Made by a program: the position numbers and the translations under genes. DNA of 64,000 nucleotides, from IMG/VR virus record IMGVR_UViG_3300010413_000002, positions 1-64,000 of that record; one strand, 5' to 3'. Source of the DNA: a virus (taxonomy: Duplodnaviria > Heunggongvirae > Uroviricota > Caudoviricetes). Below are positions 6,668-40,968 of the stretch, piece after piece; positions within the stretch are counted from its first letter, which is position 1, and the number at the start of each line of letters is the position of its first letter. Under the pieces are notes generated by a model. That model saw only the letters and a list, made by a program, of their open reading frames with translations, was not told the origin of the DNA and did not search any database.

Positions 6668-7990
6668 TTAAATTAGATTTTTTCTTATAAAACTTAATAA
6701 ATCTTCTTTGTTGTTTTCAACTTTATCATCAAGAACTGCATTAAATAATTCTTGTAGAATAAATCCTATAATTTTATGTCCTTTTTTTAATCCAATAAGT
6801 TTCATTATATCGTTTCCATTAATATTTAAATCTTTTACAGAAAATGCTGGAATATAGTTTTTTACTTCATTTATTCTTTTTAAAATTGTTTTCCAGTAGC
6901 TTAATTTCTTTAACCTTTTCTTTCTGTTTGCTTTTCTATCAGCTATTTTTAATCTAAGAATATCCTTATAATTAACATTGTCATTTTCTAATGCTACTAA
7001 CCATCTTCTTATAGCTTTGTCTTTACTTGTTGGCATTATGTGCCACATATGAAGCTTTATAATATTGCATACTTTGTCTATAAATTCATTACTGAATTTT
7101 AAATTTAATAAAGTTTGTTTTGCATAACTACAACTATATTTTTCGTGATTATGAAATATTAATTTATCGTTTTTTATTTGAAACTTACTTTTGCCTACAT
7201 CGTGTAGCAATCCCGCCATTTTTACTATAGGATATTTACTAGAAATATAAGAACAAGTATCTAAACAATGTTCATAAACTGTTTCATTATGATGTTCTCC
7301 GCCATCTAAATACTTAATCTTTTTTAAACAAGGAAAAACAGTTCCAAGAATTCCTGTTTTATCTAAATAAATACAAAATTGCTTTAAGTTCTTGATGGAT
7401 TTTATTATTTCTTTATTTATTCTTTCTTTAGGAATCGACTTTATTCTTTTTTTAGAACCGCTTTTTTTCAAAAGTTCTTTTAAACTAGAGTCTTCTATTT
7501 CAAAATTTAGAATTGAAGCAAATCTAAAAGCTCTTAATATTCTTACTGGATCTTCTTTTATTCTTTCAGAAGGTTTTCCTACAAATTTGATTAGTTTATG
7601 CTGTATATGACTTTGTCCTCCAAAATAATCAAAATATTCATCCTTGAAAGGATCATAAGCTATTGCATTTATTGTAAAATCTCTTCGACTACAATCTTCT
7701 TTTAGTGTTTCAACGTAATTACAAACTGGTTTTCCTATAATATCGTATCTTTCTCCTCGAAAAGTTGCGACTTCAATTCCATCTACGAGCATCACTTTAA
7801 ATTGTTCTCCTACGTGAGAAAGTTTTCTATCTTTGAATATTTGTTTTATTTTGTTTGGTTTTGCGTTTGTAACAATATCATAATCTTTTGGTTCTAAACC
7901 AAGAAGTTTGTCTCTGGTGCAACCGCCTATGAAAAAAGCTTGATAACCTTTGTTTTGAAGTATTTTTATGATTTCAAGTTCTTTTTTCAT
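6668..7990 (-). CDS. cca: CCA-adding enzyme (tRNA nucleotidyltransferase) with C-terminal HD domain.
   Basis: FFIGGCTRDKLLGLEPKDYDIVT (pol-beta nucleotidyltransferase head, GGxxRDxLLGxxxxDxDxxT) and LLHDVGK (HD motif). Confidence 0.8.
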   Translation of the reverse strand: MKKELEIIKILQNKGYQAFFIGGCTRDKLLGLEPKDYDIVTNAKPNKIKQIFKDRKLSHVGEQFKVMLVDGIEVATFRGERYDIIGKPVCNYVETLKEDCSRRDFTINAIAYDPFKDEYFDYFGGQSHIQHKLIKFVGKPSERIKEDPVRILRAFRFASILNFEIEDSSLKELLKKSGSKKRIKSIPKERINKEIIKSIKNLKQFCIYLDKTGILGTVFPCLKKIKYLDGGEHHNETVYEHCLDTCSYISSKYPIVKMAGLLHDVGKSKFQIKNDKLIFHNHEKYSCSYAKQTLLNLKFSNEFIDKVCNIIKLHMWHIMPTSKDKAIRRWLVALENDNVNYKDILRLKIADRKANRKKRLKKLSYWKTILKRINEVKNYIPAFSVKDLNINGNDIMKLIGLKKGHKIIGFILQELFNAVLDDKVENNKEDLLSFIRKNLI

Positions 7991-9117
7991 TCCTCATTAA
8001 TATCGTTAACAACTAAAAACCATATAAATCCTCCACTTATTAATATTAAAGCTATAATTTCTAATATTTTAAAGTTTCCTTTGATTTCGTTTTTTAAATA
8101 CTCAAACTCCTTCATTTCTTTTCTTTCAAAATATTGATTAGTTGCTTTTTTTATTATATCAATTATTTCTAAATTTATTTTTTTATGTTGAATTAAGTTT
8201 TCACGAAGTTCTATAAAAACTCTATTATTTTTAGACCATCCAAATGAATAAACCCAAAGAATATCAGCTTTTTCATTAGTTCCAATAATTATTATAACAT
8301 CATTCTTTTTTCCTCCAACCCATTTAGCTTCTAATATTCTAGTAAAATCTTGCGAATTATCAGTTAAAACTAATACTGAATTCAATTGTTTCTGCTTACC
8401 TACTTCTCCTAGAAATTTTGAATATTCATAATTGAACTTCTTATAGTCTAAATTAGGCAAGTTTTTTCCAATTAAAATAACTCTATCTAAATATTGATAA
8501 TCATATATATTTAAAGGATAGTTTGGTATTTTATATTTTTCTGATTTTATTAATTCTTTAGAAAACAAAGAATGCTTTGCTCCAAGAATATAATTTTTAT
8601 ATTCATGTTTGCGGGAGACTGGATCGTCTATTTGAACTTTAGTAAATCTTGGAGGTTCATTCTTTCCTTGTTTATCAATTCTATCAATTTCAAAATTACC
8701 AAAATCATGATAAACCATATAAAACTTTTCCCAAGGATAAGTAAAGCAAGTATGACAACAAGTATCATAACAAGTACTACAATTTTTTCCATCTTCATTG
8801 CAATTACAATCATGTGGATTGCAACTATAACAATCACAACTATAATCGTTTCTACACCTAGAAAAATCATCATCATAAACGCAGATTTCTTTCTCAGCAA
8901 CTTTTCTAATAACTAATCCATTTAGAATTTCAGTATCTTTAAGAATACTATGAATATTATATTTATATATACCAAAGATAATTCCTATCATCAAAACAGA
9001 ATAACAAAAAAATTCTAAAAAGTGAATTTGTCTCTTATAAATTTTTTTTATTATAAGAGGAAGTATAATTGCAAATATAATTATAATTATCAATAACATT
9101 TCAACAATGAATATCAA
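7987..9117 (-). CDS. Membrane protein with a Cys-rich extracytoplasmic domain.
   Basis: N- and C-terminal transmembrane helices. Cys cluster CDCYSCNPHDCNCNEDGKNCSTCYDTCCHTC. Confidence 0.5.
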   Translation of the reverse strand: MIFIVEMLLIIIIIFAIILPLIIKKIYKRQIHFLEFFCYSVLMIGIIFGIYKYNIHSILKDTEILNGLVIRKVAEKEICVYDDDFSRCRNDYSCDCYSCNPHDCNCNEDGKNCSTCYDTCCHTCFTYPWEKFYMVYHDFGNFEIDRIDKQGKNEPPRFTKVQIDDPVSRKHEYKNYILGAKHSLFSKELIKSEKYKIPNYPLNIYDYQYLDRVILIGKNLPNLDYKKFNYEYSKFLGEVGKQKQLNSVLVLTDNSQDFTRILEAKWVGGKKNDVIIIIGTNEKADILWVYSFGWSKNNRVFIELRENLIQHKKINLEIIDIIKKATNQYFERKEMKEFEYLKNEIKGNFKILEIIALILISGGFIWFLVVNDINEE

Positions 9118-9652
9118 CTACTACTGCATAATAAGTATATAAATAATCTTTTGGTATTTCGTAATTTTCAGTACTTATATTATAAATATCACAAACACTA
9201 CAAAATCTTTCAGCAACAAACTCTTGATAAAGTTCAGAAAATTCATTAAGATGTTTTGTTATTTCCGAAAAAGGTCTTATATATTTCTTAACTTGTTTAA
9301 TACAATCACTAAGAGGCATTATATCATATTCTTTATTCATTAAAGAAGAATCAACTTCTACTTTTAAAGGGTTATTTCCTTTTGCTCCCAAATCTTCCCA
9401 AATCTTTTGTATTTCTTTTTTGTTTTCATACATAGTTGTATAAGAAATTTTTTTATTTTCATCTGCAAATTTTTTTTCACAAATTTTTAAAAACTCGCCT
9501 TTGTATTCAGAAAGAACACAGGAATACATACCTCCTATTCTATAATAAGGAGTCCAAACAGTTCCTTTATGTTTTTCTAAAAACTTCTCTACAATATCTT
9601 GAGCTTCTTCTTTTGAATTAGCTTTTGTTAATAATATTATTCCTTTATTCAT
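9101..9652 (-). CDS. Hypothetical protein.
   Basis: 183-aa ORF. Confidence 0.5.
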   Translation of the reverse strand: MNKGIILLTKANSKEEAQDIVEKFLEKHKGTVWTPYYRIGGMYSCVLSEYKGEFLKICEKKFADENKKISYTTMYENKKEIQKIWEDLGAKGNNPLKVEVDSSLMNKEYDIMPLSDCIKQVKKYIRPFSEITKHLNEFSELYQEFVAERFCSVCDIYNISTENYEIPKDYLYTYYAVVVDIHC

Positions 9653-10187
9653 TATTTCTTTTGTTTTTATTTTTATAAATAATTTTTTCTTGAATTTTAC
9701 CAGCAGTCCAACAGTTTATTTTAATACAAACTTCAACTGCCTCTCTAGGAGATTTATTTAAATACAATGCTGTTTTAGCTTCTCTAAATCCAGCACCATT
9801 ACTGTCAAATTCTCCTTCTTTTATTTCATAAATATCTAAATTATTCCATATATGATATAACTTTTCTTGATAATAAAAAAAATAATTATTTTCTAAAATT
9901 TTATCATCTTTGAATGTTTTTGAAAATTCTGAAATAATCCATTTTCTAAATTCCACAAAAAATCTTAATATATCCAATCTTTTATTTCCTTCTGGTTTTC
10001 TATTTTGACAAAATAATTCAAACTGATTAGATTCAGAACAAGAACCAGTACTACAAAAAATTATATTATTTACTTCAAATAATTTTTGAAAATTTTCATC
10101 TTTTGCACCACTATTTCCATAAAAGCCTCCGCTATCAGTAGCTATTTCTATTCTATCTTTATAATTTTTTACTGCTAATACAGTCAT
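9645..10187 (-). CDS. Hypothetical protein; possible Ntn-hydrolase (HslV/proteasome-like) fold.
   Basis: The N-terminus MTVLAVKNYKDRIEIATDSGG resembles the Thr1 N-terminus of proteasome beta / HslV. A later NGAGFREAKTALYL resembles the GSGxxxAxxA motif. Confidence 0.35.
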   Translation of the reverse strand: MTVLAVKNYKDRIEIATDSGGFYGNSGAKDENFQKLFEVNNIIFCSTGSCSESNQFELFCQNRKPEGNKRLDILRFFVEFRKWIISEFSKTFKDDKILENNYFFYYQEKLYHIWNNLDIYEIKEGEFDSNGAGFREAKTALYLNKSPREAVEVCIKINCWTAGKIQEKIIYKNKNKRNNE

Positions 10188-10204
10188 TATCTCTCCTTTT
10201 TATT

Positions 10205-10744
10205 TTATTCTAATTTTAATGGTTCATCTATTTTACTATCAAAAACTTCTTTAGTCTTTGTATTTATAACTATTGCATAAGGCTCAAGTTTTTCTTTGGT
10301 AAACCCAAATATTTTTAGGAATATTCCTTTTGGAACAGAATCGATCATTGTTTCAAAAGAGCGTTTTCTATCTAAAAGCATTTTTTGGCTTTTTTCAAAA
10401 TCATCTCTTCCTGCTTCTATTGTCCTTTGAATAGTTGAATAGAGTTCAGTTGATAGTTTATGATTATCTTCAGTAATTAATACTATTTTAGCTTTTAATC
10501 CTTCTTCTCCATATCTTCCAGTCATTGAAGCCTCTATTATCTCTTGTAGGTCTTTTTTGTACATTTTTGGAATTTGTACTGATTCCATTACTTTATTGGT
10601 AAAAGATGAGTATAAATTTTGATTCTGTTCGTAAGCGTATTTAATTCCTTTTAAAGAATTATTTCCATAATTATAAACTCCTATAAGATATATAGCTATT
10701 ATTGCTAATATAATTGCTATTCCAGTTAAAATATATTTTAGCAT
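10205..10744 (-). CDS. Hypothetical membrane-anchored protein.
   Basis: 179 aa, N-terminal transmembrane helix. Confidence 0.5.
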   Translation of the reverse strand: MLKYILTGIAIILAIIAIYLIGVYNYGNNSLKGIKYAYEQNQNLYSSFTNKVMESVQIPKMYKKDLQEIIEASMTGRYGEEGLKAKIVLITEDNHKLSTELYSTIQRTIEAGRDDFEKSQKMLLDRKRSFETMIDSVPKGIFLKIFGFTKEKLEPYAIVINTKTKEVFDSKIDEPLKLE

Positions 10745-10771: not shown

Positions 10772-11155
10772 TTATAAATTTTCTTTTGCTTCTTCATATC
10801 CTTCCCAATTATCTACACCAGCACACTCTAAAGCATTCAAAAAATCACTATCACGTTGTAAATTACGATTTTTTTCTTTTAGTTCTTTTAATTCATCTTC
10901 TATTATCTCATTAACTTGCTGATTTAAATAAACTTCATAAGCTTTAATAATTTCAGATTTTTTTGTATTTAATTTAGAAACTCCATTGTTTGTAATATGA
11001 CAGTATAATTCTGGCAAACCATCCATAAGATTATAGTAGTCAGCTAATTCACAAATTATTTTCTTCTTATTTAAAGAACCGTCTTTGTTTTCAACTATTT
11101 CTTTCCAATATTTGTTATAAATTTCTTCTTTCGTTAATTCTTTTTCTTCAGACAT
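10772..11155 (-). CDS. Hypothetical protein.
   Basis: 127-aa ORF. Confidence 0.5.
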   Translation of the reverse strand: MSEEKELTKEEIYNKYWKEIVENKDGSLNKKKIICELADYYNLMDGLPELYCHITNNGVSKLNTKKSEIIKAYEVYLNQQVNEIIEDELKELKEKNRNLQRDSDFLNALECAGVDNWEGYEEAKENL

Positions 11156-11180
11156 TTAGTTTTCCTTTTTTTTGTTAATA

Positions 11181-11693
11181 TTAATCTATTTTATTTTCTA
11201 ATGGTGGAAGTTTAGCTCCGTTTGAAATTTCTATTTCTTTCATTTTATCATAATCTTCTTGAGATATTTCTTCATAAGAAACGCTTGCTAACTTTTTAGA
11301 AAGCTCCCCAGATATTAAAGCCTCTACTTTTTTTAAGTTAAGTTTTTTCTTTGAAAGTTCTTCTTCTTTTTCTTTAATTTCATTAGAAAGTTTTTGAACA
11401 AGATTTCCAAAATAATTTTCAAGCTCTTGAATTGATGAAGGAAATAATTTTAAATCATTAGTACCACTATAAATTTTGTTTTCTATGTCAATTACATTAG
11501 ACCAAGAATTACGTTTATATTGCAAAAATTCTATATAAGTTGAACTTCCTTCGTTTAATAAATCTATGACAATACAATATGTCATTTTAATATTATTATC
11601 GTCTTCTTCTACCATCTTAACTACATCACCTTTTTTCAAAGATGTTATTTTTAAAATTTTAGCTTCAGATTGTATTAAAGTTTTAGTCTTCAT
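11181..11693 (-). CDS. Hypothetical protein.
   Basis: 170-aa ORF. Confidence 0.5.
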   Translation of the reverse strand: MKTKTLIQSEAKILKITSLKKGDVVKMVEEDDNNIKMTYCIVIDLLNEGSSTYIEFLQYKRNSWSNVIDIENKIYSGTNDLKLFPSSIQELENYFGNLVQKLSNEIKEKEEELSKKKLNLKKVEALISGELSKKLASVSYEEISQEDYDKMKEIEISNGAKLPPLENKID

Positions 11694-11735
11694 TTCATCT
11701 CCTTTTTTTAATAATTCTATATTATAAGTATTTAA

Positions 11736-11930
11736 TTAATTTTCAATACTTTTCTTATTTTTTTCAAAACTATGAAACTTATCACAATTTCCACAATATT
11801 TGAGATTGACATCGTTTTCGTCATAAGAAGTCATTCCGCATTTCTTACATTTTATGGCTTTTGTGAGAACTAAATAGTTTTTGTCTATGTAGATGATATA
11901 ATCATCATTTTCTTCAAGTATTACTTTCAT
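11736..11930 (-). CDS. Small zinc-ribbon protein.
   Basis: CKKCG...CGNC pairs. Confidence 0.45.
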   Translation of the reverse strand: MKVILEENDDYIIYIDKNYLVLTKAIKCKKCGMTSYDENDVNLKYCGNCDKFHSFEKNKKSIEN

Positions 11931-11932
11931 TT

Positions 11933-12295
11933 TTAATAAACTGTTGTTACTTTTCCGTTTTTAATAATAAATTCCTTATTGTCGCTTTTAACGTTATTAA
12001 CTCCATCAATAATAGCTTTTTCAACACCTTGTATTTCCAATATTTCTTTTTTTATTTTTGCAATTTTAACATTTGTAAATCTTTCCATATATCTAACAAT
12101 ACAATGGTCTGTTAGATAGTTTTTATCCTTTAAATTTATAAGTGTCTGTTCCAATTTTTTTTGTTGCTCTGACAATATTCGTATTTCTTCCGCTGTTTTT
12201 TTATGAATATCTTTTTTTTCAATTAAAAGCTTTTTAATTTCTCGTATTTGTTTTCGTAATTGTTTTAATTTTTCTGTGTGTAATTTTTTCATCAA
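11933..12295 (-). CDS. Hypothetical protein.
   Basis: 120-aa ORF. Confidence 0.5.
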   Translation of the reverse strand: MMKKLHTEKLKQLRKQIREIKKLLIEKKDIHKKTAEEIRILSEQQKKLEQTLINLKDKNYLTDHCIVRYMERFTNVKIAKIKKEILEIQGVEKAIIDGVNNVKSDNKEFIIKNGKVTTVY

Positions 12296-12385
12296 TTAGT
12301 TTTTCAGTTAACGCTTTGATTTCAACATCTATTATAAAATCAACCTTTTCAAATATATTAACAGCCATTTTATTTTTTTATTATT

Positions 12386-12667
12386 TTATAATTTTTCAAT
12401 ATAATTAACTACAATTCTATTACACTTCTCGGTTAATTTATCACTATCAAAAATTCTATCTATATATTTTTTAGGTAAATTTAAATGTTGATAACAACCA
12501 TCAGCAAAAATAGATTTAATAGCTTCTTCTTTTTTTCTTTCAAACAATTCCGCATAAGCAGGTTCTGTATATTCTTGTAAACCTGTATGATCTGTAGTAT
12601 AATCTAATCCATCATCATCTACTTCTTGTAATTTTACAAATTCTTTAATTAGTTGTTTCAATTTCAT
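12386..12667 (-). CDS. Hypothetical protein.
   Basis: 93-aa ORF. Confidence 0.45.
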   Translation of the reverse strand: MKLKQLIKEFVKLQEVDDDGLDYTTDHTGLQEYTEPAYAELFERKKEEAIKSIFADGCYQHLNLPKKYIDRIFDSDKLTEKCNRIVVNYIEKL

Positions 12668-13034
12668 TGTTTAAATAATTTTTTAAATTTTCTTCAGTTA
12701 AATCTTTTAAATCAATTTTTTTGTTATGAATTGAAATAGTTGTAATGTTTCTATCTAATAGATTAGCTTGTTTTTTTAATTCTTCAAGTGAAATATTATT
12801 ATCAACTGATGTAAAAAATTCTTCTTCTTTTCCATTGTTGTTATAACTAAAAATAACCGATGTTTTTTTAATTTCTTCAATCGATTTTTTATTTATTTTT
12901 AGTTCAAATCCTGCAATAGTAATAGATTTAACGTTGTTTTCTATTAAGTTTTCTAAAACAGAAAGCAATTTGTCTTCTTTTGGTATTTCATAAAGACCTT
13001 TTTTTCCGTTTTTATAAGATACGTTATATTTCAT
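12645..13034 (-). CDS. Hypothetical protein.
   Basis: 129-aa ORF. Confidence 0.45.
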   Translation of the reverse strand: MKYNVSYKNGKKGLYEIPKEDKLLSVLENLIENNVKSITIAGFELKINKKSIEEIKKTSVIFSYNNNGKEEEFFTSVDNNISLEELKKQANLLDRNITTISIHNKKIDLKDLTEENLKNYLNNEIETTN

Positions 13035-13065
13035 AAGTCCTCCATTTTTATTAATAAAATAAATT

Positions 13066-13623
13066 TTATAATTTTAATGTGTGGTTTTTAAAATTTATCA
13101 AAGCATTTAAATCTTTTTCTTTAAAAGTTATTAATTTATCAACCAATCCTTTTTTACATTTTTTTATAAAAGTAGATAGCTTTTCTTTTCCATCCATTAT
13201 AAAATTGTATTCATTATTGCATAAAATATTTTTATGATTAGATATTCTAACTGCAAAAAATATTTTTCCTTCGCTGTAATATTCGAAATATTTGCTAAAT
13301 TTCTTTGACAATTTCATAGTCTGTTCTATTTCTATTCCTTTTATACTTTTTAATTCATTTATTAAAGCGGTCATCTTTTTTTCAAATCTTTTATGCAAAC
13401 AATAAATAATGCTTAATTGTTTTTCTATAGAAATAAGTGAATATTCACTTTTTTTATTATTCTCTGCTTTTATAAATTTATCTTTTTCTCCAAATTTCTG
13501 TATTATTTTATTAGTAAATTTATCAGAAAAAATATAACCAACATTGTTATTTGAATACAAAGCGTATCTATTAAAGCTATTTTCTATTTCTTTTACAAAT
13601 TCATCATCTCTTAATATAAACAT
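13066..13623 (-). CDS. Hypothetical protein.
   Basis: 185-aa ORF. Confidence 0.5.
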   Translation of the reverse strand: MFILRDDEFVKEIENSFNRYALYSNNNVGYIFSDKFTNKIIQKFGEKDKFIKAENNKKSEYSLISIEKQLSIIYCLHKRFEKKMTALINELKSIKGIEIEQTMKLSKKFSKYFEYYSEGKIFFAVRISNHKNILCNNEYNFIMDGKEKLSTFIKKCKKGLVDKLITFKEKDLNALINFKNHTLKL

Positions 13624-13635
13624 TTTTTTTATTTG

Positions 13636-14034
13636 TTATTTTTTTGTATCCATAATATCAAAAATCATATTAGAATTTTCGTTTTTATCTTTTTTTGCAT
13701 TATTAGCCATACCAATAATAATATTTACAAAATCATCATTAGTTTTATTAAATATTTGACTTAAATAACCAACTACAAGACCTAAAGAACATGCAACAGA
13801 ATAAGCAGTTTGATTTTTTTGTTTATATAAAAATTTTACAGTTTTTCCAGCTAAATTCATTGCTTTTAAATATTGTTCTTTACTTTCTTTTTCTTGTTCA
13901 GTATTGACTTCGATTGTTTTAAGAAAAAGTTCTTTACTTTTTTTTAACATTTCGTCAAATTTTTTATCAAACTCTTTATTACTTAACATCTTCTTGTTCC
14001 TTATTATTAGTATCTTCATCAAAAATTTTATCAA
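13636..14034 (-). CDS. Hypothetical protein.
   Basis: 132-aa ORF. Confidence 0.45.
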   Translation of the reverse strand: MIKFLMKILIIRNKKMLSNKEFDKKFDEMLKKSKELFLKTIEVNTEQEKESKEQYLKAMNLAGKTVKFLYKQKNQTAYSVACSLGLVVGYLSQIFNKTNDDFVNIIIGMANNAKKDKNENSNMIFDIMDTKK

Positions 14035-14923
14035 TTATTGTAAATAACCACGGGGTTGTTGGTTCAAATTCTGGATGTTTTTCTGTTTTTTCTCTTAAAA
14101 TTGCAATCAACTCCTCAAAATAAGCTACATCTACACCAGTTAGTTGCTCTTCAAGAACAGAAGTGTTATTCAAATCTAATAATGATATTTGATAACACAT
14201 TTTAAAATATTCTCCTGCACTAATATTCCAACCTCTCTTAATAAACTTTCGACTTCTAATTACCGAAGTAATTGGATAAAGACTTCCACCATATTTTAGT
14301 TGTTTAGAAAGAAGCGATTCAAGAGCTTCTTTTTTTGTAATTAATTTATTTTTACTGTAATCATAATAATTAGTCGCATGAACAAAGTCATAATTCTTAT
14401 GTATTTCATCTGGCGTTCCGTAAAATCTTATTACAATTTGTATTTTGTCAGTTAAAGTTATTGCATTAGGACTAATAAAAGATACTTCAAATTTTTCCTT
14501 TTCTTTTTCTTTTTCTTCTTCTTCTTTTTCTTCAATTTTTTCATTACGCCAAAATCCTTTGTTTGGTATAAAAATTTTAACTCTATTTTTATCTAAATTT
14601 TCTAAAGCAATTGATACTTGTGTTTTTTGTCCAGTTATATTTTCATATTCATTCTCAAGGCTATCTATAGCTCCATCTAAAATTCTTAAATCTTTACAGT
14701 TAGTTTTTTCAACATAATATTGAGAAATAGCTTTTACGGCTTCTTTAGTTCTAAAATAAATATCAAAATCATTAACTTTTTCTTTCAAAAGCATTGAAGC
14801 TATAGAGCCTCCCGTAACTATTGTATTTTTAATAGCTAATTCCTTTACATTAGTATCGTCTATAGAATCTATCCATTTTTCTATTTTTTTATTTAAAATT
14901 TTTTTAATTGTTTTAATTTGCAT
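13979..14923 (-). CDS. Pol-beta-superfamily nucleotidyltransferase-fold protein (function unknown).
   Basis: TGGSIASMLLKEKVNDFDIYF fits the G[GS]-x(9-13)-D-x-[DE] minimal nucleotidyltransferase signature. 314 aa, with a poly-E/K linker. Confidence 0.4.
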   Translation of the reverse strand: MQIKTIKKILNKKIEKWIDSIDDTNVKELAIKNTIVTGGSIASMLLKEKVNDFDIYFRTKEAVKAISQYYVEKTNCKDLRILDGAIDSLENEYENITGQKTQVSIALENLDKNRVKIFIPNKGFWRNEKIEEKEEEEKEKEKEKFEVSFISPNAITLTDKIQIVIRFYGTPDEIHKNYDFVHATNYYDYSKNKLITKKEALESLLSKQLKYGGSLYPITSVIRSRKFIKRGWNISAGEYFKMCYQISLLDLNNTSVLEEQLTGVDVAYFEELIAILREKTEKHPEFEPTTPWLFTIIDKIFDEDTNNKEQEDVK

Positions 14924-15290
14924 TTTCCTCCTTTATACAACTTTCAACTAACAAAAGCATACGTGCTTTAAACGATTCGTTAGCTTTTAGTTTTTGAACG
15001 CTTCTTGTTATTACAGAATCGGCTTGCGATACAACTGTTTGAGAAATTTTTTTTATTACTTGTTTTTTAAGTTCTTCTTTAAACTCTTTTTGAGATAAAG
15101 CAGTTGAAATTATATTTTCAAATAAATTATTAATTTCAGAACTATGATTTTCCAAACATTTTTTATATATTTCATATAAAGGATTATTATAAGTTTCAGA
15201 AGTAATTTCAATTATACCTTTTTGCATATGAGTAAGAATTACTTTCATAATCTGTTCTTCTAATAAATCGATTTTATCTTTATTTGACAT
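14913..15290 (-). CDS. Hypothetical protein.
   Basis: 125-aa ORF. Confidence 0.45.
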   Translation of the reverse strand: MSNKDKIDLLEEQIMKVILTHMQKGIIEITSETYNNPLYEIYKKCLENHSSEINNLFENIISTALSQKEFKEELKKQVIKKISQTVVSQADSVITRSVQKLKANESFKARMLLLVESCIKEENAN

Positions 15291-15312: not shown

Positions 15313-15741
15313 TTAGCATCTAAATGGTAAAAATTCTTTATCTTCTTCTAATTTTTCTTTTATATATTTAAGTTTTGAATTCATTTTATTTTCAATCTCT
15401 AGTATATTTTTATAATTTAATTGTAATACTTTTGTATTCTTTTTAGTATATTTAGAATTAATATCTTCCATTGCTTTTCTTGAATTTAATATTAAAGCAT
15501 ATCTTAATAAACCACACCACCAACCTTCTTTGGTTTTACGTCTATCAATTAAATATTTATCATCTTCATTTATTATAACAAATTTATTTGTATTTTCTTT
15601 AGCTATTTCAAGATTTTCATTTCTTAATTCCATATATTCATTATATTCACGTTCTTTCATGTAAATATCAAAAGCTTTAAATTCTATACGTGAATTTTGA
15701 CATTCTATAGATTCTATTAATTCTTCTGCTCCTTGACCCAT
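15313..15741 (-). CDS. Hypothetical protein; first gene of the leftward block.
   Basis: 142-aa ORF next to the divergent control region. Confidence 0.5.
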   Translation of the reverse strand: MGQGAEELIESIECQNSRIEFKAFDIYMKEREYNEYMELRNENLEIAKENTNKFVIINEDDKYLIDRRKTKEGWWCGLLRYALILNSRKAMEDINSKYTKKNTKVLQLNYKNILEIENKMNSKLKYIKEKLEEDKEFLPFRC

Positions 15742-16095
15742 TTAAATTTATTTTGTTTTTAACTTTTTTTACTATAACACTACAAATTAAAAAGTCAAGA
15801 ACTTTTCATAAAAAAATTTTTTCTATAATAAAAAAGTGTATCAAAATGAAACAATATTTCAAATTTATTTTGAAAAAAACACTTGAATTAAATAATAATT
15901 TTATATATATATCGTTTAGGGAAGTTATACAAGTTTAGGGAAGTAAACAATTATAAGTATCACATCAAAATTAATTAAATTATAAATAAAAAAATACAAG
16001 AAGAAATAACTGGTATTTTAACAAACGATGTTTACGAATGGAAAAAAAGGAATTCAAAGATTTATAGAAAAATTATTAAATAAAAAGGAGGACTT
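15742..16095. promoter_or_regulatory. Divergent control region between the leftward block and the rightward replication block.
   Basis: 354 nt non-coding. Leftward promoter (TTGACT-16-TATAGT on the minus strand, about 15765-15796). Two direct copies of TTTAGGGAAGT (15916-15926, 15935-15945). Strong RBS AAGGAGG before 16096. Confidence 0.55.
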
Positions 16096-16899
16096 ATGAA
16101 ATATACATTTGAAGGTTTTTCACAGAAAAAAGCTATTGAAAATAAATTAGATTTTAAAGATCTTGCTATACTTAGATTTATAACTGATTTTTATCCAAAT
16201 ATGACGAAAAAAATTATTGATAATAAAGAATATGTTTGGATAAGTTATAAATATATTTTACAAGAAATTCCATTATTATATTTAAGCAAGAGATCTCTTT
16301 TTAATAGACTTACTGCATTAGAAAATAAAGGGTTTTTAGAAAGAAAATGTATAAAGAATAACGAAGGAACTTTTTCTTATATAAGATTAACTGAAAAAAT
16401 GGCAATTTTAATTAGTGAGGGTATGAAAAAAGCTTCTGACCGTATGAACTTAGATTCCGACGAGGGTCAGAATCTTATTTCCGACGGTGGTCAGAAGTTT
16501 ACTTCCGACCAAAATAATCCTTCTATTAAAATAAATTCTTCTATTAAAAATATCTTTTTAAAAGAAATATATATAAAGAAAGAAGAAAATGAAAAAAACT
16601 TTGAAGAATTTTGGAAAAATTATATCCCAATTAAATGCAATGATAGAATAGTTGGAAAAGGCAGTAAAAAAGAAGCGTATAAAGCATACAGTAAAAGTCT
16701 TAAAAAAGATACTCACAAAAACATCATAACTGGTTTAGAAGCTTATTTAAAGCATTGCGAAGAAAACAATCAATTTACAGCAGCCGTAACAACATTCTTA
16801 AATAAAGAATATTGGAAAAATGAATATGGAAACTTTATTAATGCAAGACAAAAAACTTACCAAAATTCAAATAATAATAATGAAAGGGAAATACTATGA
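16096..16899 (+). CDS. Phage replisome organizer / DnaD-like replication initiator (N-terminal winged-helix domain).
   Basis: N-terminus FEGFSQKKAIENKLDFKDLAILRFITDFYPNM...RLTALENKGFLER resembles phage replisome-organizer N-terminal domains. Followed directly by a helicase loader and DnaB. Confidence 0.6.
   Translation: MKYTFEGFSQKKAIENKLDFKDLAILRFITDFYPNMTKKIIDNKEYVWISYKYILQEIPLLYLSKRSLFNRLTALENKGFLERKCIKNNEGTFSYIRLTEKMAILISEGMKKASDRMNLDSDEGQNLISDGGQKFTSDQNNPSIKINSSIKNIFLKEIYIKKEENEKNFEEFWKNYIPIKCNDRIVGKGSKKEAYKAYSKSLKKDTHKNIITGLEAYLKHCEENNQFTAAVTTFLNKEYWKNEYGNFINARQKTYQNSNNNNEREIL
16455..16510. repeat. Candidate origin iterons embedded in the initiator gene.
   Basis: TTCCGACGAGGGTCAGAA (16455-16472), TTCCGACGGTGGTCAGAA (16479-16496) and TTCCGACC (16503-16510), with a 24-nt period. 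The segment is GC-rich in an AT-rich gene. Confidence 0.4.
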
Positions 16900-17540
16900 T
16901 TACGCTTAAAAGAAGAAACAGATTTGATAATATAACTTTTGATAACTTTGTTATAGACGAAAGTAATAAAGAAATTGTTGACTATTTAAAAGATTATTGC
17001 AATAACATTGAAAAGAAAATAGAACTCTGCGAAAATGTGATAATAAGCGGAACTGTAGGAACGGGAAAAACAATGTTAGCAAAGATTTTACAACAAAACT
17101 TACAAAAAAAAGAAATAACTGAAATAGTAGAAGAAGAGTCTTTTAATGGAACTGATTATGAAATTACTGAAAACAAACGAGTTAGAAAATTAAATATTAG
17201 ATATGTTTGTTGTAAAGACTTAATTGAAGAACTTCGTAAACATTTTTCTTCAGAGAATAAACAAAAAGTTCTTTGTTATCATGAAGCCGATATTTTAATT
17301 GTTGATGAAGTCGGAGTACAATACAATACAGACAATGAAAGAACAACTTTATATGATTTATTTGACTTCCGTTGGCAGAATTATAAACCTACAATTATTA
17401 TTTCAAACAATGAATTAATTCAGAAAGACAAAAATAGAGCGTTAGGTTTAAACAAAATATTAGGCTCAAGAATTTTAGATAGACTTAATAGTGGAACTAC
17501 AAGGTATTTTTATATCAATTCTAAATCAAAAAGAAGGTAA
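16896..17540 (+). CDS. DnaC/IstB-like AAA+ helicase loader.
   Basis: Walker A GTVGTGKTMLA and Walker B ILIVDEVG. Overlaps the initiator stop. Confidence 0.8.
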   Translation: MITLKRRNRFDNITFDNFVIDESNKEIVDYLKDYCNNIEKKIELCENVIISGTVGTGKTMLAKILQQNLQKKEITEIVEEESFNGTDYEITENKRVRKLNIRYVCCKDLIEELRKHFSSENKQKVLCYHEADILIVDEVGVQYNTDNERTTLYDLFDFRWQNYKPTIIISNNELIQKDKNRALGLNKILGSRILDRLNSGTTRYFYINSKSKRR

Positions 17541-22343: not shown

Positions 22344-22877
22344 TTGAATTGCAAGATGAAACTTAAAATAAGGGAATTTGTAAAAACAATAGGGGGAAAT
22401 GCAAATAAATTTGAAATCGATGGAAGTTTTATAAAATATAAAAGTTTACGTATATATATAACTACTCAACTAGAAATAGATACTCAAATTGACAAAAAGA
22501 TAAGTGGCTACCAAGAAGTACCTCGTTATAGATCTTTTTATCTTAACGAAGAAGAACACAAATTTTTAAGTGAAAAATTTAAGTTAAAAGTACAAGAAAT
22601 GGAAAAAATAAGAAAAGAAGAAGTAAAAAAGTCAGAACAAGAAATAATAGATTTATTTGAACAAAGGAGAAATATGAAAGTAGATTTTGAAAGAATGAAA
22701 AGTAATTTATCTTACTCATTAGATAAAACAAATGACATAACAGATAAAGCTTACGACGAAAATCTTAACGGATTTAATATTGATTTATTAAACGAAAAAG
22801 AAATTAAATCGTTAGCACAAGAGTATTTAGCTATTTATGAACTTTTATCAATGATAACGTGTTTGGAGGAGAAATGA
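22344..22877 (+). CDS. Hypothetical protein.
   Basis: 177-aa ORF. Confidence 0.45.
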   Translation: MNCKMKLKIREFVKTIGGNANKFEIDGSFIKYKSLRIYITTQLEIDTQIDKKISGYQEVPRYRSFYLNEEEHKFLSEKFKLKVQEMEKIRKEEVKKSEQEIIDLFEQRRNMKVDFERMKSNLSYSLDKTNDITDKAYDENLNGFNIDLLNEKEIKSLAQEYLAIYELLSMITCLEEK

Positions 22878-23362
22878 CAGTTATTACATATAAAAATGGA
22901 ATTTTGGCTTCTGATACGTTGGCAACAAATAATTCATATGATCATTCATTAAAACAACAAAAAATTTATATTGTTAAAAATGAAGTTTATGCTTTTACAG
23001 GAACAGTAAATAGAATGAATGAATATTTAGATTTTATAAAAGGAAAAATAAAAATTCTTACTTCTTGGGAGAAGAATGATATTGAAGGTATATGTATAAA
23101 TTTAAAAACTAAAAAAAAGTATCAGTTTCAAATTTGCGGAAATTATGTTTCTAAAATTGAATTTATAGATGATTTTGTTGCTTTTGGTTGGGGTAGACAA
23201 TATGCAAAAGGAGCTATGGAAATGGGAGCTGATGCTATAACAGCGATAGAAGTTGCTTGTAAATATACGATTTGTCAGTCTCCAATATATTATATTGATA
23301 TAAATGAAGAAAAACCAACAATTAAATTATACAAAAATGATAGATACAAGAGAAATTACTAG
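22874..23362 (+). CDS. HslV / proteasome-beta-like Ntn hydrolase (putative peptidase).
   Basis: RBS GGAGGAGAA then MTVITYKNGILASDTLAT (compare proteasome/HslV T-T-I-V-x-V-x-x-x-G-V-V-L-A-A-D-T-R-A-T). FGWGRQYAKGAMEMGADAITAIE resembles the GSGxxYAxxAxxA motif. Size about 163 aa. Confidence 0.5.
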   Translation: MTVITYKNGILASDTLATNNSYDHSLKQQKIYIVKNEVYAFTGTVNRMNEYLDFIKGKIKILTSWEKNDIEGICINLKTKKKYQFQICGNYVSKIEFIDDFVAFGWGRQYAKGAMEMGADAITAIEVACKYTICQSPIYYIDINEEKPTIKLYKNDRYKRNY

Positions 23363-23499: not shown

Positions 23500-24456
23500 A
23501 TGGAAAATAAAATAAAAGAACTAAAAAAGTTTTTAGATTTGGTAAATATAGTAAGACCAAAAAAAAATTTAGCAGTACCACAAGTAAATTTAGCCAAATA
23601 TCACAAAGGAAAATTAATTTATAATAATTTAGATTGTCAAATAGAATATAAATTAGAAGAAAAACTCTTTAAAAAAGATTGTTTAATAAATTTAAGTTAT
23701 TTATCTTTTTATTTAAAGAATTATCTTTTTTTAGATATTGATAATATTAAACAAGATGAAGCATTTTTCTTAAAATATAAAAGCTATTTTACATTTAAAA
23801 AATATAAAGAGAAAAATAGCTATGAAATAGAAGACTTACAAAGTATTATAAAATATACAATACCGTTTATTTCAAAAGATAAATCTAGGTATTATTTAAC
23901 TGGAATTTATTTCGATAAAAACAATTTAGTGGCTACAAATGGACACATCTTAATAAAATATCAATCTGATTGCAAATTTAATGATTCTTTTATTTTATCT
24001 ACTGAAATATGTAAAATTTTAACCAATCTAAAAGACGATATAAGTTTTTATTATAATAAAGATACTGTTTGTCAAAAAGTTATGTTTAAAAACGATAAAG
24101 TAAAAATTATTTCTAAGATAATAGATGGGGAATATCCAAATTATAATAATGTAATAAAACCTTGTTTGGAATATAAAAAGAAGTTATTTATTGAAGTTGA
24201 TGATTATAAGTTTATGAATTTAATGTCCATGATTAATTTTAATAAAAATAGTATAAAAATCAAAGGTAAAGAGTATATATTTAAAATTAATCATAAAATG
24301 AAAGGTTTGTTTAATGGAAAATATATAAAAAATATAATTGATATAGCTAAAAAATATAAGTATAAAGAAGTAAATTTTGCTTCTAACCAAGAATATCATC
24401 CTTTATTAGCAAAGGTAGATAATTGTACTTTATTGATAATGCCATTAAGAAACTAA
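23500..24456 (+). CDS. DNA polymerase sliding clamp (DnaN-like, short phage form).
   Basis: RYYLTGIYFDKNNLVATNGHILIKY matches the DnaN motif RYxLNGVLxE...LVATDGHRLA. Confidence 0.6.
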   Translation: MENKIKELKKFLDLVNIVRPKKNLAVPQVNLAKYHKGKLIYNNLDCQIEYKLEEKLFKKDCLINLSYLSFYLKNYLFLDIDNIKQDEAFFLKYKSYFTFKKYKEKNSYEIEDLQSIIKYTIPFISKDKSRYYLTGIYFDKNNLVATNGHILIKYQSDCKFNDSFILSTEICKILTNLKDDISFYYNKDTVCQKVMFKNDKVKIISKIIDGEYPNYNNVIKPCLEYKKKLFIEVDDYKFMNLMSMINFNKNSIKIKGKEYIFKINHKMKGLFNGKYIKNIIDIAKKYKYKEVNFASNQEYHPLLAKVDNCTLLIMPLRN

Positions 24457-24464
24457 AGGAGAAT

Positions 24465-24878
24465 ATGTTTAGTTTTAAAAAAAAGGAAGAAATTAAGGAA
24501 AGCAAAGCTGAAGAAGTTAAGCAAGAAGAAATTGCCTTAGATATTAGAGAAGAAATAAAAAAAATTGGAAATAATGTAGATAAGTTTATATTTAAGCGAA
24601 AACTTAATTCTTTTGGTCGTTCAGATTATGAATTTGAATATAAAAATTTATCTATTAGCTATTATCTTGATATTTTGTCAATATCAAAAATTTATTTAAT
24701 TAATAAAAATTGGAAAAAGGAAAAAAAATTATATCTATATCCATTACAGTTATCAAAAAAAGAAGAAGAATTTTTAGATGAGAAATTTTTAGAAAGAGCT
24801 AAACAAGAGAAAAAAAAAGAAGAAACAAGATTATTAGAAGAAGAAACTAAACTATTAAGAAAAGTTAAATTTGATTAA
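24465..24878 (+). CDS. Hypothetical charged coiled-coil protein.
   Basis: RBS AAGGAGAAT before the ATG at 24465. Confidence 0.45.
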   Translation: MFSFKKKEEIKESKAEEVKQEEIALDIREEIKKIGNNVDKFIFKRKLNSFGRSDYEFEYKNLSISYYLDILSISKIYLINKNWKKEKKLYLYPLQLSKKEEEFLDEKFLERAKQEKKKEETRLLEEETKLLRKVKFD

Positions 24879-36463: not shown

Positions 36464-36908
36464 AGGAATGAAAATTTGTTCTACTAAAAATTGTATTCAT
36501 AAAGGAAAACAGCAACTAAAAAGTAATTTTTATACAAACAATAAAAATTCAGACAAATTATGTGTTCAATGTAAGGATTGCCATAGGGCAAGACTTGAAA
36601 GAAAAGTAAAAAACGATCCGAATTATTGGAAAAATCGTTATAAAAAATATGAAAATTATAATAGAGAATATAAAAGTACTGGAGAATTTAAAGAACGGCG
36701 TAAAACACTTAGAAAAACCAATGAATACAAAGAACGACGTAGTAAATATAGAAGAGGACGATATAAAAACGACGAAGAATATAGAACTAATTGTTTAAAG
36801 ATATGTAAAAAAAGATACATAGAGAAACAAAATAATATGTGTGATGACTTATTTAATGATTTTTTAATTAATATAGAAGAACGAAATGAAACATATACAA
36901 ACTCTTAA
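36450..36908 (+). CDS. Zinc-finger basic protein; paralog family with 40027-40461 and 53297-53599.
   Basis: C-x4-C...FY...CVQC then a K/R/Y-rich tail with EYKxRRxxxRK repeats. Confidence 0.45.
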   Translation: MKEVKGMKICSTKNCIHKGKQQLKSNFYTNNKNSDKLCVQCKDCHRARLERKVKNDPNYWKNRYKKYENYNREYKSTGEFKERRKTLRKTNEYKERRSKYRRGRYKNDEEYRTNCLKICKKRYIEKQNNMCDDLFNDFLINIEERNETYTNS

Positions 36909-37092
36909 AGTAGAGTACGACAAAGAAGAAGATATAACAATCAAGCTCTTCACTAAAAGACAAATGAAAGAATATGTGAAGCTACAAGATAAATCTGACG
37001 CTAGCGAAGATTTTATGGTTGGATCAAGTTTAGAGGAAAGAGGAATTAAAGGTCTTTTTTTTGAAAAAAGCTTAAAACGCCCTATTTATTAA
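36886..37092 (+). CDS. Hypothetical small protein.
   Basis: 68-aa ORF. Confidence 0.35.
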   Translation: MKHIQTLKVEYDKEEDITIKLFTKRQMKEYVKLQDKSDASEDFMVGSSLEERGIKGLFFEKSLKRPIY

Positions 37093-37355
37093 ATTTCTAA
37101 AAAACTTCCCTTTTAAATTTTAATATATATAATATATCTTATGGCAATTTAAACGTTGTATATAATAGATGATATGGACACGGGAGCATTACCCGTCTCT
37201 TCCACCAATTGATTATAAGGGGGAGAAATAGATTTGACATACATTCAAAGATACAATCTTTGCTCAGAGTGATTTCTGTGAAAGTCAAAAAAATAACTGG
37301 AGAAGAAATTCTTTTAGCCGCCTAAAAATTCAAAATTTTAAGACGGAACGGTTTG

Positions 37356-37388
37356 GGAGAGCCGTTTTACCAAACTCTCCTTTGTTTT
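37356..37388. terminator. Bidirectional rho-independent terminator between convergent blocks.
   Basis: GGAGAG-ccgttttaccaaa-CTCTCC stem-loop followed by TTTGTTTT. It sits at the stop of the minus-strand tdk and downstream of the plus block. Confidence 0.5.
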
Positions 37389-38208
37389 AAATCTCATTAA
37401 ACCAATTGTATTTTTCTTTTTTGCTTTTCTTTTTAATTTCTTCTTTAGCAAAAGTTTTTGATCTTCTTCTGTTTTTCTTTATTTCTTTTAAAACGTCTTC
37501 AATCTTTTTTTTATCATGATAATTTGAAAATAATTGCTTTTTCTTACTTTTCTTTTTTTTGAAATTTTTCCATTTAATTTTATTATAATCTATATCTTCA
37601 TTACAATAATCATGATGTTTTTCACAAACTGCTTTATATTTATCTCCATCGCCAACAACAACCAAATTTTTGTTTTTAATGATTCTGCCAGTGCAAGTTC
37701 CTTTTTCGCAACAGCCTTCAACACTGCATTCAGCAGTTAGATAAGTAATATTTTTACTTTTAATCAATCCATCTCCTATTAATTTCTTTGTTATTGGGAA
37801 ATATTCATTCTTGAAGTCTCTATCTAAACCAGCTAAAAATATTTCTATTCCTTGATTACTAAAAACTTTAATCATTTTAATAAATCCTTCAACTTCTTTT
37901 TTATTATTAATTCCAAAAAATTGGAGTTCATCTATAGCAATGGCTTTTATGCCTTTGTTTTCTTTAATGATTTTTTCTATATCTTTATAATTTTTAACAG
38001 AATAAGCTTCTGTTTCTTTTCCTGTCCTTGATAATACTTTGTTTTTGCCATATCTGTCATCATCAAAGGTGTGCTTAAAACATATAGCCTTTTTTTTATT
38101 TTTTTTACAAAGCTCAATGTATTCTACAACTGCATTTGATTTGCCAGCATACATTGATCCTGTATATAATTTTACTCTTTTTATAGAGGTTTTTGTCTTT
38201 TTTTCCAT
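37387..38208 (-). CDS. tdk: Thymidine kinase with C-terminal Zn ribbon and Lys-rich tail.
   Basis: LYTGSMYAGKSNAVVEYIE (P-loop), IDELQFF, C..C / CEKHH zinc ribbon. Confidence 0.85.
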   Translation of the reverse strand: MEKKTKTSIKRVKLYTGSMYAGKSNAVVEYIELCKKNKKKAICFKHTFDDDRYGKNKVLSRTGKETEAYSVKNYKDIEKIIKENKGIKAIAIDELQFFGINNKKEVEGFIKMIKVFSNQGIEIFLAGLDRDFKNEYFPITKKLIGDGLIKSKNITYLTAECSVEGCCEKGTCTGRIIKNKNLVVVGDGDKYKAVCEKHHDYCNEDIDYNKIKWKNFKKKKSKKKQLFSNYHDKKKIEDVLKEIKKNRRRSKTFAKEEIKKKSKKEKYNWFNEI

Positions 38209-38302
38209 AACTTTCTTTTTTTAATTAAATTTAATAAATTCTTTACAAAACTGATTTTGCTTATTACAATGTATAATATCATAATAATAAAACAAAAACA
38301 AG

Positions 38303-38617
38303 ATGTTTAACGAACTTAATTTAGAAGAATTTAAAGAAATAATAAAATCTGATAAACCTATACTAATAGATTTTTATGGAAAACATTGTCCTCAATGTAA
38401 AATAATTGCTCCAATCTTAGAAGAATTATCAAGTAAAATGAAAGATAAACTAGGTTTTTACAAGTTTGATATTAATCAAGATTTAGAAGTAGCGAAAGAA
38501 TATAATATTCAAAGCCTTCCAACTATAATTATTTTTAAGGAAGGTAAAACTTTAAACGTTAGAACTGGAAGCGGTTCTAAAAAGATTATTCAAGATTGGA
38601 TTAATGAAAAAATTTAG
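38303..38617 (+). CDS. Thioredoxin-fold protein (CPQC active site).
   Basis: FYGKHCPQCKIIAP. 104 aa. Confidence 0.7.
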   Translation: MFNELNLEEFKEIIKSDKPILIDFYGKHCPQCKIIAPILEELSSKMKDKLGFYKFDINQDLEVAKEYNIQSLPTIIIFKEGKTLNVRTGSGSKKIIQDWINEKI

Positions 38618-39068
38618 TATTTTATTATTAAGTATATTTTTGATTGCAACTTGTCCAATAAATGAATTTAAAGTTGTTAAAGTTATAGATGGAGATACTT
38701 TTGATATAGAAGAGATTGGACGAATTAGATTAATTGGAGTTGACGCATATGATTCACGTAGTACAAGAATGATTAGAAAGCAATCAGAGAGAACTGGGTA
38801 TAACCAAAAGAAAATTAAACAACTTGGAGTTAAAGCTACTGAATTTGCAAAAATTATTCTATTTGGAAAATGTGTAATTTTAAAAAAAGATTATAAAGAT
38901 ACAGGTAGTTTTAAAAGAAAATTAAGACAAGTAGAAGTTGAAAATAAAGATTTTGGAGAATTGCTACTAAAACGAGAATTAGGAAACGCTTATTGTGGAG
39001 ACCAAAAAGTTGCAATGTTTCAATATTACAACCAATTAAGTAAATTTAAGTGCAAAAATAAGAAGTGA
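38604..39068 (+). CDS. Secreted thermonuclease (staphylococcal-nuclease-like).
   Basis: Signal peptide. VIDGDTFDIEEIGRIRLIGVDAYDSRS matches the SNase motif V-x-DGDT...R-L-x-G-I-D-A-P-E. Confidence 0.75.
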   Translation: MKKFSILLLSIFLIATCPINEFKVVKVIDGDTFDIEEIGRIRLIGVDAYDSRSTRMIRKQSERTGYNQKKIKQLGVKATEFAKIILFGKCVILKKDYKDTGSFKRKLRQVEVENKDFGELLLKRELGNAYCGDQKVAMFQYYNQLSKFKCKNKK

Positions 39069-39257
39069 TACTAAAAGTATAAATCTCTATACAACCTATA
39101 GTAATTATAAAAAATGTTAAAAAAACACCAAAAAATACTTAAAAGTAATAAAAATTTTATCCTCAAAGTGTAGTTTTTTTGGCAAAATACTTCCCTAAAA
39201 ATTAAGAAAAAATTAAAATCATATACATAATGTATTTGTTTAATAAAAGATAATCTA

Positions 39258-40052: not shown

Positions 40053-40461
40053 GAGATGTATTATTTGCGGCAAAGAAAAACCACTTTCTGAATTTTATAA
40101 ACAACATAATTATTTTAAAGGACGAGTAAAACCTACACTTAAATACAATAAAAAATGTAAAAGATGTTTTATTGATAAATTTAGAAATCCTTGGGTTGAA
40201 AAAAATAAAGAATTGCAAAAAATTTATAGAAAAAATTATTATTTAAAAAAAACTGGCAAATTCGATAAAATTGATAAAAGTGAATACAAAGGCAGAATTT
40301 GTGAAAGATCGCATAGAATTGTTAACCATTTAAAACGAGAAAAGAATAAAAAGATGATAAATGATTTTCAAACTAATGCTCGTCTTTTAAAAAATGAAGA
40401 TAAAGCAAAAATAGATGCAAAATATCAAGAAATAGTTGATATTTTGACACCTAAGAATTAA
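40027..40461 (+). CDS. Zinc-finger basic protein (paralog family C).
   Basis: CIICGKEKPLSEFY...CKRC...W..KNKELQKIYRKNYY. Confidence 0.45.
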   Translation: MTNTIKKFKRCIICGKEKPLSEFYKQHNYFKGRVKPTLKYNKKCKRCFIDKFRNPWVEKNKELQKIYRKNYYLKKTGKFDKIDKSEYKGRICERSHRIVNHLKREKNKKMINDFQTNARLLKNEDKAKIDAKYQEIVDILTPKN

Positions 40462-40787
40462 AATTTTAGATTATTTTTTAGGATAAAATATCCTATCATT
40501 AGAAAAAACATGTTGGCTCAGTTTTTTATAGGTTTATATATTAAGATTAATTCAATTAATCTTTGTAAAGTAAAAATGTATTTTTATTTAAATGTAAAAA
40601 TGATATTTAAGATTTTTTTTCATATATTTTATTTTTATTAAATTAATACAACTTTCAAATTTAAGATTAGCATTTTTATTTTTAAATGTCAAGCGTTTTT
40701 GAATATTTTTTTGATGATTGTTGTAAATTTATATGTCACAAAAGAATAATTCTATAATATATTAAATATAGTTTTGTTTTTTTTATT

Positions 40788-40955: not shown

Positions 40956-40968
40956 ATTTTTTTTTAAT

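Follow-up and report, generated by a model that had tools for sequence, protein, structure and literature searches.

The closest described relatives of the proteins discussed here are gathered in the catalogue of proteasome-like homologues published by Fuchs, Alva and Lupas in 2021, which defined PPH as a viral proteasome-like family whose members are about 140 residues long, are carried by tailed phages or prophages and were described mainly from proteobacteria and their phages (PMC8665760). PPH occurs in the Caudovirales and was called 'the first true viral member'; among the groups catalogued, only PPH and RPC are missing helix H2. In addition, the catalogue lists AAH and CPH as group I homologues with phages among their carriers, and describes BPH as having a long, highly acidic pore loop after H2 and no known ATPase partner. 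All proteasome-like homologues have in common a conserved catalytic triad and oxyanion hole, formed by Thr1, Asp17, Lys33 and Gly47 (PMC8665760).

It is an overstatement, then, to say (as the preliminary description of this DNA did) that phage-encoded proteases of this kind are rarely described. Beyond the families of the 2021 catalogue, there is a dedicated phage protein family, PHROG 1040; the BFVD collection holds 42 viral structure clusters with this proteasome-like fold at E <= 1e-3, including proteins of Vibrio, Caulobacter, Serratia, Gordonia and jumbo phages; and the Salmonella jumbo phage pSal-SNUABM-04 carries two HslV genes and no HslU (PMC7823757). As for experiment, the only datum that we found in the literature on a phage protein placed in this family of proteases concerns gp116 of Erwinia phage RAY, and a full-text search found no biochemical characterisation of any PPH, CPH or AAH member. 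The two proteins analysed here add to known kinds, both groups having been catalogued in phages in 2021, and the outcome of our work is accordingly that they are filed in their correct families and the claim of rarity is corrected, with no new question opened. What we do find mildly interesting is that a PPH-type gene and a CPH/AAH-type gene should be found together in one phage of ~123 kb, and that a small sub-clade around the first of them has an altered active-site periphery.

Two proteasome-like genes in one phage window

The window, by which we mean the whole 64 kb stretch of DNA that was analysed, makes up about half of a 122,666 bp contig; it is AT-rich (22-27% GC, against 24% for the phage genome as a whole) and carries phage-like genes. 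It contains exactly two proteasome-like genes, which we call ORF A and ORF B (Table 1), and a third copy was sought across the 64 kb and not found. They are separated by 12.7 kb and read from opposite strands, in different gene blocks. Both had been picked out beforehand as HslV-sized reading frames with a threonine following the initiator methionine, and both stand as such: in each, the threonine comes immediately after the methionine, with no propeptide. ORF A begins MTVITYKNGILASDTLAT and carries the later motif GWGRQYAKGAMEMGADA, and the corresponding stretches of ORF B are MTVLAVKNYKDRIEIATDSGG and NGAGFREAKTAL. The mechanical list of open reading frames started ORF A at GTG 22859, a start that we dropped in favour of ATG 22874 because of the position of the Shine-Dalgarno sequence, because this ATG overlaps the stop codon of the upstream reading frame (22344-22877) as ATGA, and because of the N-termini of the family, in which 145 of 150 representatives open with M-T or M-S where they align with ORF A residue 1.

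Table 1. Positions of the two proteasome-like genes and associated features in the window
Feature	Position	Strand	Description
ORF A	22874-23362	+	162 aa; proteasome-like Ntn protein that fits the PPH type; HslV-like fold in reduced form, helix H2 absent
ORF B	9645-10187	-	180 aa; proteasome-like Ntn protein, H1-H4 complete, BPH-like fold, relatives that point to CPH or possibly AAH
Shine-Dalgarno GGAGGAG	22865-22871	+	5' of the ORF A ATG; read directly from the sequence
Shine-Dalgarno AGGAG	10193-10197	-	5 bases before the ORF B ATG; read directly from the sequence
DnaC/IstB-type helicase loader	16896-17540		only AAA-like match among the window ORFs scanned

Are these truly proteasome-like proteins? 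The answer is yes. ORF A and ORF B are proteins of the proteasome-beta/HslV superfamily with the Ntn-hydrolase fold, as originally proposed, a conclusion on which profile comparisons, structure predictions and the conserved catalytic residues agree. The resemblance is far above chance whether it is judged by PHROG, by hhalign or by Foldseek. Both proteins match PHROG 1040, the 'peptidase HslV family' (E 1.3e-25 for ORF A and 4.5e-18 for ORF B), and while the two can hardly be aligned directly with each other (27% over 60 aa, E 0.005), comparison of the ORF A family profile with that of ORF B by hhalign gives a probability of 99.3% and an E value of 5e-20. The expected Pfam family, PF00227 (Proteasome), is indeed the best Pfam match of both, although the scores of 17.5 bits (ORF A) and 12.6 bits (ORF B) fall under its gathering threshold of 22.4 bits. 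We take these scores as a sign of divergence and not of non-membership, because many members of the ORF A family carry a precomputed PF00227 match or the JGI label 'ATP-dependent protease HslVU peptidase subunit'.

The family around ORF A is a large one. A word-indexed homologue search returned ORF A itself only, and the family surfaced in an exhaustive search of representatives, in which HMMER found 447 representative clusters of a metagenome library at E <= 1e-3; phage proteasome-like proteins (PPH, together with phage-borne AAH and CPH) are widespread. Family members are mostly ~135-170 aa long, and their alignments begin at residue 1. Searched against the PDB, the ORF A family profile finds HslV (2e-10), BPH (3e-10) and 20S beta subunits (5.5e-10), and its alignment with HslV 5ji3 starts at M1-T2 and takes in the Asp, Lys, Gly and GSG positions, with ~20 additional residues in 5ji3 at the site of helix H2. 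The close homologues of ORF B number 13, at 31-69% identity. Two narrower PDB searches were set aside: phmmer with the single ORF A sequence gave chance matches only (an acyl-CoA dehydrogenase at E 0.31), and a narrow ORF B profile found designed helical repeat proteins only, spuriously, via an 'AALYLG..EAV' helix. Among cultured phage genomes, tblastn with ORF A found just two Vibrio phages, whose proteins are annotated 'nucleophile aminohydrolase', and tblastn with ORF B found no match; exact-sequence matching recovered ORF A from one 7 kb Logan contig only and ORF B from none. A PADLOC scan gave nothing useful.

The predicted structures carry the argument further. The AF2 models of ORF A (from an 87-sequence alignment; pLDDT 92.6) and ORF B (from 13 sequences; pLDDT 91.8, pTM 0.88) both have the alpha-beta-beta-alpha sandwich with an S1-S11 beta core, and their Foldseek matches in the PDB are almost exclusively BPH, 20S and HslV, with a probability of 1.00, so that the structural check set for the original call comes down in favour of the Ntn fold. 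ORF A matches BPH, 20S beta and HslV best (E ~1e-6, TM ~0.6), and for ORF B Thiobacillus BPH (5ovs) comes first (TM 0.82, rmsd 2.5 A, E 5e-11), with 20S beta subunits and HslV ranked after it. Where the two models part company is in their helices. ORF B has all four (H1 50-60, H2 70-88, H3 134-142 and H4 147-156), whereas ORF A has H1 (45-55), a loop without H2, H3 (108-116) and H4 (121-131), in a compact fold that also does without the C-terminal S12/H5 elements.

Active sites and placement among the described groups

The core catalytic residues of the proteasome-like family have counterparts in both proteins. The equivalents of proteasomal Thr1, Asp17, Lys33 and Gly47 are T2, D14, K30 and G43 in ORF A, and T2, D18, K35 and G48 in ORF B. 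Among 87 sequences of the ORF A family, residue 2 is Thr in 84 and Ser in 3, D14 and K30 are found in every one and G43 in 85; the glycines of the G-x-G motif are kept in all 87 (G105) and in 86 (G107). In the ORF B family, M-[TS]-V, D18, K35, G48 and G131/G133 are present in all sequences that cover the position (n=24, viral and cyanobacterial members included), G131-A-G133 being the G-x-G equivalent, and the nucleophile itself varies between Thr (9) and Ser (12). The G-x-G motif singled out in the preliminary description is therefore invariant or nearly so in both families. Since ORF A and its closest relatives keep the Thr1-, Asp17-, Lys33- and Gly47-equivalents, we think that the catalytic triad is under selection.

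The periphery of the active site is another matter. In the proteasome, Ser129, Asp166 and Ser169 (within the GSG and D-x-x-S-G-G motifs) are supporting active-site residues, and neither ORF A nor ORF B has the set. The GSG serine is absent from both: ORF A has Trp106 in its place, at a position that is Ser in 69 of the 87 family sequences and Trp in 3, and ORF B has A132, as Ala in 19 of the 24 sequences of its family. At the Asp166-equivalent ORF A has Thr132 (Asp in 64/87, Thr in 2/87), and at the Ser169-equivalent it has Gln135, a residue found in 2/87 of a family that otherwise uses Thr, Ser or Cys; ORF B has N158 and T161 at these two positions. The altered periphery is common to the nearest relatives of ORF A, which make up a small sub-clade (P0015-P0018). 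Because W106, T132 and Q135 replace the residues of the family, the active site of ORF A may, judging from these alignments, be weakened or retuned.

Which of the described groups do the two proteins belong to? By its match to the described traits of the group (size class, no H2, no propeptide and phage origin), ORF A fits the PPH type. Like PPH, it is phage-encoded and compact, with Thr straight after Met, and the contexts examined for other members of its family are phage-like. It differs in that its length is at the long end of the range, and in that its sub-clade carries other residues in place of the GSG Ser and at the Asp166- and Ser169-equivalents. Unlike that of most PPH sources, the host is probably not a proteobacterium, given the 24% GC of the phage.

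ORF B, by contrast with ORF A, is ruled out as a PPH member because its predicted model keeps H2. Its relatives come from several kinds of genome. The close clade of 13 sequences has so far been seen on metagenomic contigs only, of which those examined (L002-L006) bear phage genes; a scan of IMG/VR viral contigs found 27 loci, several of them in phages of 100-133 kb; and a scan with one genome per species found two Clostridia MAGs and eight cyanobacterial matches at 36-38% identity, most of the latter on contigs of 0.45-0.97 Mb. The cyanobacterial relatives sit in a cellular context that includes a GNAT, a secreted endonuclease and a putative nickel superoxide dismutase accompanied by its peptidase; the dismutase was called from an HCDGPCGVYDP motif. 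Some ORF B relatives contain an in-frame TAG, which might reflect stop-codon recoding. Set against the described traits of both groups, the fold and the relatives point to ORF B being a CPH-like, or possibly AAH-like, protein: its compact predicted fold with H1-H4 would fit either group, and so would its cyanobacterial, other bacterial and viral relatives.

Two better-known relatives offer a further comparison. BPH (PDB 5ovs and 5ovt) is the closest structural match of both predicted models, but the sequence identity is only ~15%, the loop that follows H2 in ORF B is short (residues ~89-100) where that of BPH is long, and ORF A has no helix H2 at all. With HslV (ClpQ), both proteins share the Thr1/Asp17/Lys33 arrangement, the G-x-G motif, the size class and an M-T-T/V-I start. 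They differ from it in the absence of the GSG Ser and, in the case of ORF A, of H2, and neither is HslV sensu stricto. HslV is the peptidase of the HslUV protease and works with the AAA+ unfoldase HslU, whose gene is usually its neighbour; the window has no HslU gene, the PF00227 scores are sub-threshold and an NCBIfam scan found no HslV match at E <= 1 (its sole match being archaeal proteasome beta, at 16 bits).

Gene neighbourhoods and possible roles

The two genes are found in quite different company. The ORF A block, on the plus strand, encodes a DnaC-like loader, a DnaB helicase, an HNH endonuclease, a sliding clamp, a helicase and a large phosphatase/kinase protein, and the ORF B block, on the minus strand, comprises a RecBCD-inhibitor-like gene, phrog_1383, phrog_15789, a Cys-rich membrane protein (phrog_2087), a CCA-adding enzyme and an Rnl2-like ligase. 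Elsewhere, members of the ORF A family adjoin PhoH, DnaB, primase or ParA/ParB genes, and relatives of ORF B adjoin genes for DNA polymerase III alpha, RNase T, NrdD, NrdG and dUTPase. The absence of an HslU-like ATPase near either gene, remarked on at the outset, holds throughout the 64 kb window: none of its seven ORFs of at least 400 aa (the size class of HslU), nor any of the other large ORFs tested, is an HslU- or Clp-type unfoldase. No HslU- or Clp-like protein was found in the related loci examined either. The window represents one more phage with two different proteasome-like types, and with no unfoldase in the part analysed.

We also looked for partners more generally: every ORF lying up to 5 kb from the gene was clustered across 45 related loci and the window, and this recovered only lineage-specific synteny, with nothing in common with the neighbours in the window. 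In the 10 kb to either side of the gene, none of the 45 related loci has another proteasome-like gene. Fuchs et al. similarly reported no co-occurring AAA+ protein, no contextual clue and limited clues to function (PMC8665760).

Our favoured explanation, which we consider likely, is that these are two separately evolved group I proteasome-like (HslV/BPH-related) Ntn hydrolases, ORF A of the PPH type and ORF B CPH- or AAH-like, that act by predicted Thr1 proteolysis. Each would be translated from its ATG with the help of a strong Shine-Dalgarno sequence and expressed alongside the surrounding replication and nucleotide-metabolism genes, a proposal that we make because ORF A and ORF B sit among such genes. 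Threonine is permitted as the penultimate residue in substrates of methionine aminopeptidase, so we propose that the host enzyme would cleave off Met1 and expose Thr as the N-terminal nucleophile. Peptide bonds would then be cut by the triad of Thr1, Asp17-equivalent and Lys33-equivalent, with the Gly47-equivalent providing the oxyanion hole. By analogy with HslV and BPH, both of which are homo-oligomers, each protein might assemble into homo-oligomeric rings or double rings through the H3 and H4 helices that it has kept, and its substrates might be unfolded proteins, peptides or a single specific target, cleaved without the help of a dedicated ATPase.

The foremost rival, which we regard as unlikely, holds that these are proteasome-like Ntn enzymes but not proteases, with Thr1 used for some other acyl transfer, whether as a connectase-like ligase or transpeptidase or as an amidase acting on a small molecule or modified protein. 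There is a precedent in connectase, a protein ligase of the same family (PMC8665760), and both the departures of ORF A and ORF B from the canonical Ser129/Asp166/Ser169 and the lack of an unfoldase partner in the window are in keeping with it. However, the helical insertion that connectase places between S3 and S4, over the active site, is absent from both models (as read from their secondary-structure strings), and the nearest structures are those of BPH, 20S beta and HslV.

A distinctly improbable alternative is that one or both proteins (ORF A the likelier) are catalytically dead or weakened binding subunits, which might serve as a decoy or poison by joining the host HslV/HslU assembly or capping it, or as a scaffold. 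The rarity of W106, T132 and Q135 in the ORF A family (3/87, 2/87 and 2/87, respectively) lends itself to this idea, as does the occurrence of HslV genes without HslU in phage pSal-SNUABM-04 (PMC7823757). It has to be weighed against the retention of the triad and the oxyanion-hole glycine in ORF A and its closest relatives, and also against the loss of H2, which changes the surface contacted by regulators in HslV and 20S and would, we infer, make docking to host HslU less likely.

Going beyond the favoured explanation of two separately evolved hydrolases, one might suppose that both are active, ATPase-independent proteases that destroy particular host proteins, such as defence or stress factors, in early or middle infection, the substitutions in ORF A reflecting a retuned specificity. 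We hold this to be very unlikely, but if true, it would furnish the first functional assignment for viral proteasome homologues. Finally, the suggestion that the two proteins combine into a single hetero-oligomeric phage 'mini-proteasome', built of separate A and B rings or of rings containing both, is scarcely credible: the two genes do share a genome, and both products keep H3 and H4, the ring-ring contact helices in homologues, but the genes are far apart on opposite strands in different blocks, related loci have a single copy within 10 kb on each side, each family is widespread independently of the other, and HslV and BPH assemble from one kind of subunit. The same separation in the genome, together with the membership of different subfamilies, the single copies and the want of a conserved neighbour, leaves the earlier notion of two paralogs making up a functional 'system' unsupported. 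The small PPH sub-clade to which ORF A belongs might, with its altered active-site periphery, serve as a useful biochemical contrast.

Gene blocks and the surroundings of the two proteasome-like genes

The layout of the window is marked by two reversals, the first at ~15700-16100 (~16 kb), where strand bias and the sign of the GC/AT skew turn from minus to plus, and the second at ~36900-41200 (37-41 kb), where gene orientation and skew sign return from plus to minus. Together, these flips indicate one divergent and one convergent gene-block junction in the window. The features that we consider here are collected in the table.

Genes of the window considered in this part, with strand and basis of annotation
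Feature	Position	Strand	Basis or remark
Rnl2-type RNA ligase	1218-2198	-	PF09414 and PF18043 matches
CCA-adding tRNA nucleotidyltransferase	6668-7990	-	phrog_2244
376-aa protein	7987-9117	-	phrog_2087, E 1e-86
Membrane-anchored protein	10205-10744	-	phrog_1383 (annotation 'virion structural protein'); directly upstream of ORF B
Protein whose C-terminal part matches 'host RecBCD nuclease inhibitor' families	10772-11155	-	PHROGs 4790 and 6234; directly upstream of ORF B
Small ORF flanking ORF A/sliding clamp	22344-22877	+	no family matches
Small ORF flanking ORF A/sliding clamp	24423-24878	+	no family matches
Protein of 855 aa	28399-30966	+	phosphatase and polynucleotide-kinase-like matches combined
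GT4 glycosyltransferase, 430 aa	43615-44907	-	also touches the Pfam model 'GT4-conflict', which covers family 4 glycosyltransferases of conflict systems

In the gene block of ORF B, the minus-strand proteasome-like Ntn gene, the phrog_2087 protein carries hydrophobic segments at both its N- and C-terminus and a Cys-rich stretch, CDCYSCNPHDCNCNEDGKNCSTCYDTCCHTC, and a Pfam search with it returned no match. Around ORF A, the PPH-type proteasome-like gene, the two small flanking ORFs have in common a weak N-terminal motif, IRE.(V/I)K.IG.N..KF (BLASTP E 0.001), and they may be distant paralogs. The first of them is translationally coupled to ORF A, its stop overlapping the ORF A start in an ATGA.

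Candidate RNA-repair genes

The Rnl2-type ligase, the CCA-adding enzyme and the 855-aa phosphatase/kinase-like protein are possible components of a tRNA/RNA-repair toolkit, and host anticodon nucleases could be the target that such a toolkit counteracts.

Relatives of ORF B in cells and in other viruses

The chromosomal surroundings of the ORF B homologues are conserved in the cyanobacterial MAG contigs (L009-L016; ~2100-5500 in L010): genes for a GNAT acetyltransferase, a signal-peptidase-like protein, a putative nickel superoxide dismutase (named from its motif HCDGPCGVYDP) and a secreted DNA/RNA endonuclease are followed by the proteasome-like gene. Given this setting, the homologues in cells may be connected with oxidative stress. 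A different feature marks four viral IMG/VR contigs from sample 3300045988 (L033-L036), where the ORF B-type gene contains one in-frame TAG, at ~10247-10249, that falls exactly on a nearly invariant Trp codon (EFSK*K versus EFSKWK); it stems either from a nonsense mutation (TGG to TAG) or from stop-codon recoding. Finally, in a 62 kb phage contig with an ORF B relative (L002), the DNA polymerase III alpha gene is apparently divided between two ORFs of 371 and 673 aa (11040-14994), with a Phage_endo_I-like gene between them.
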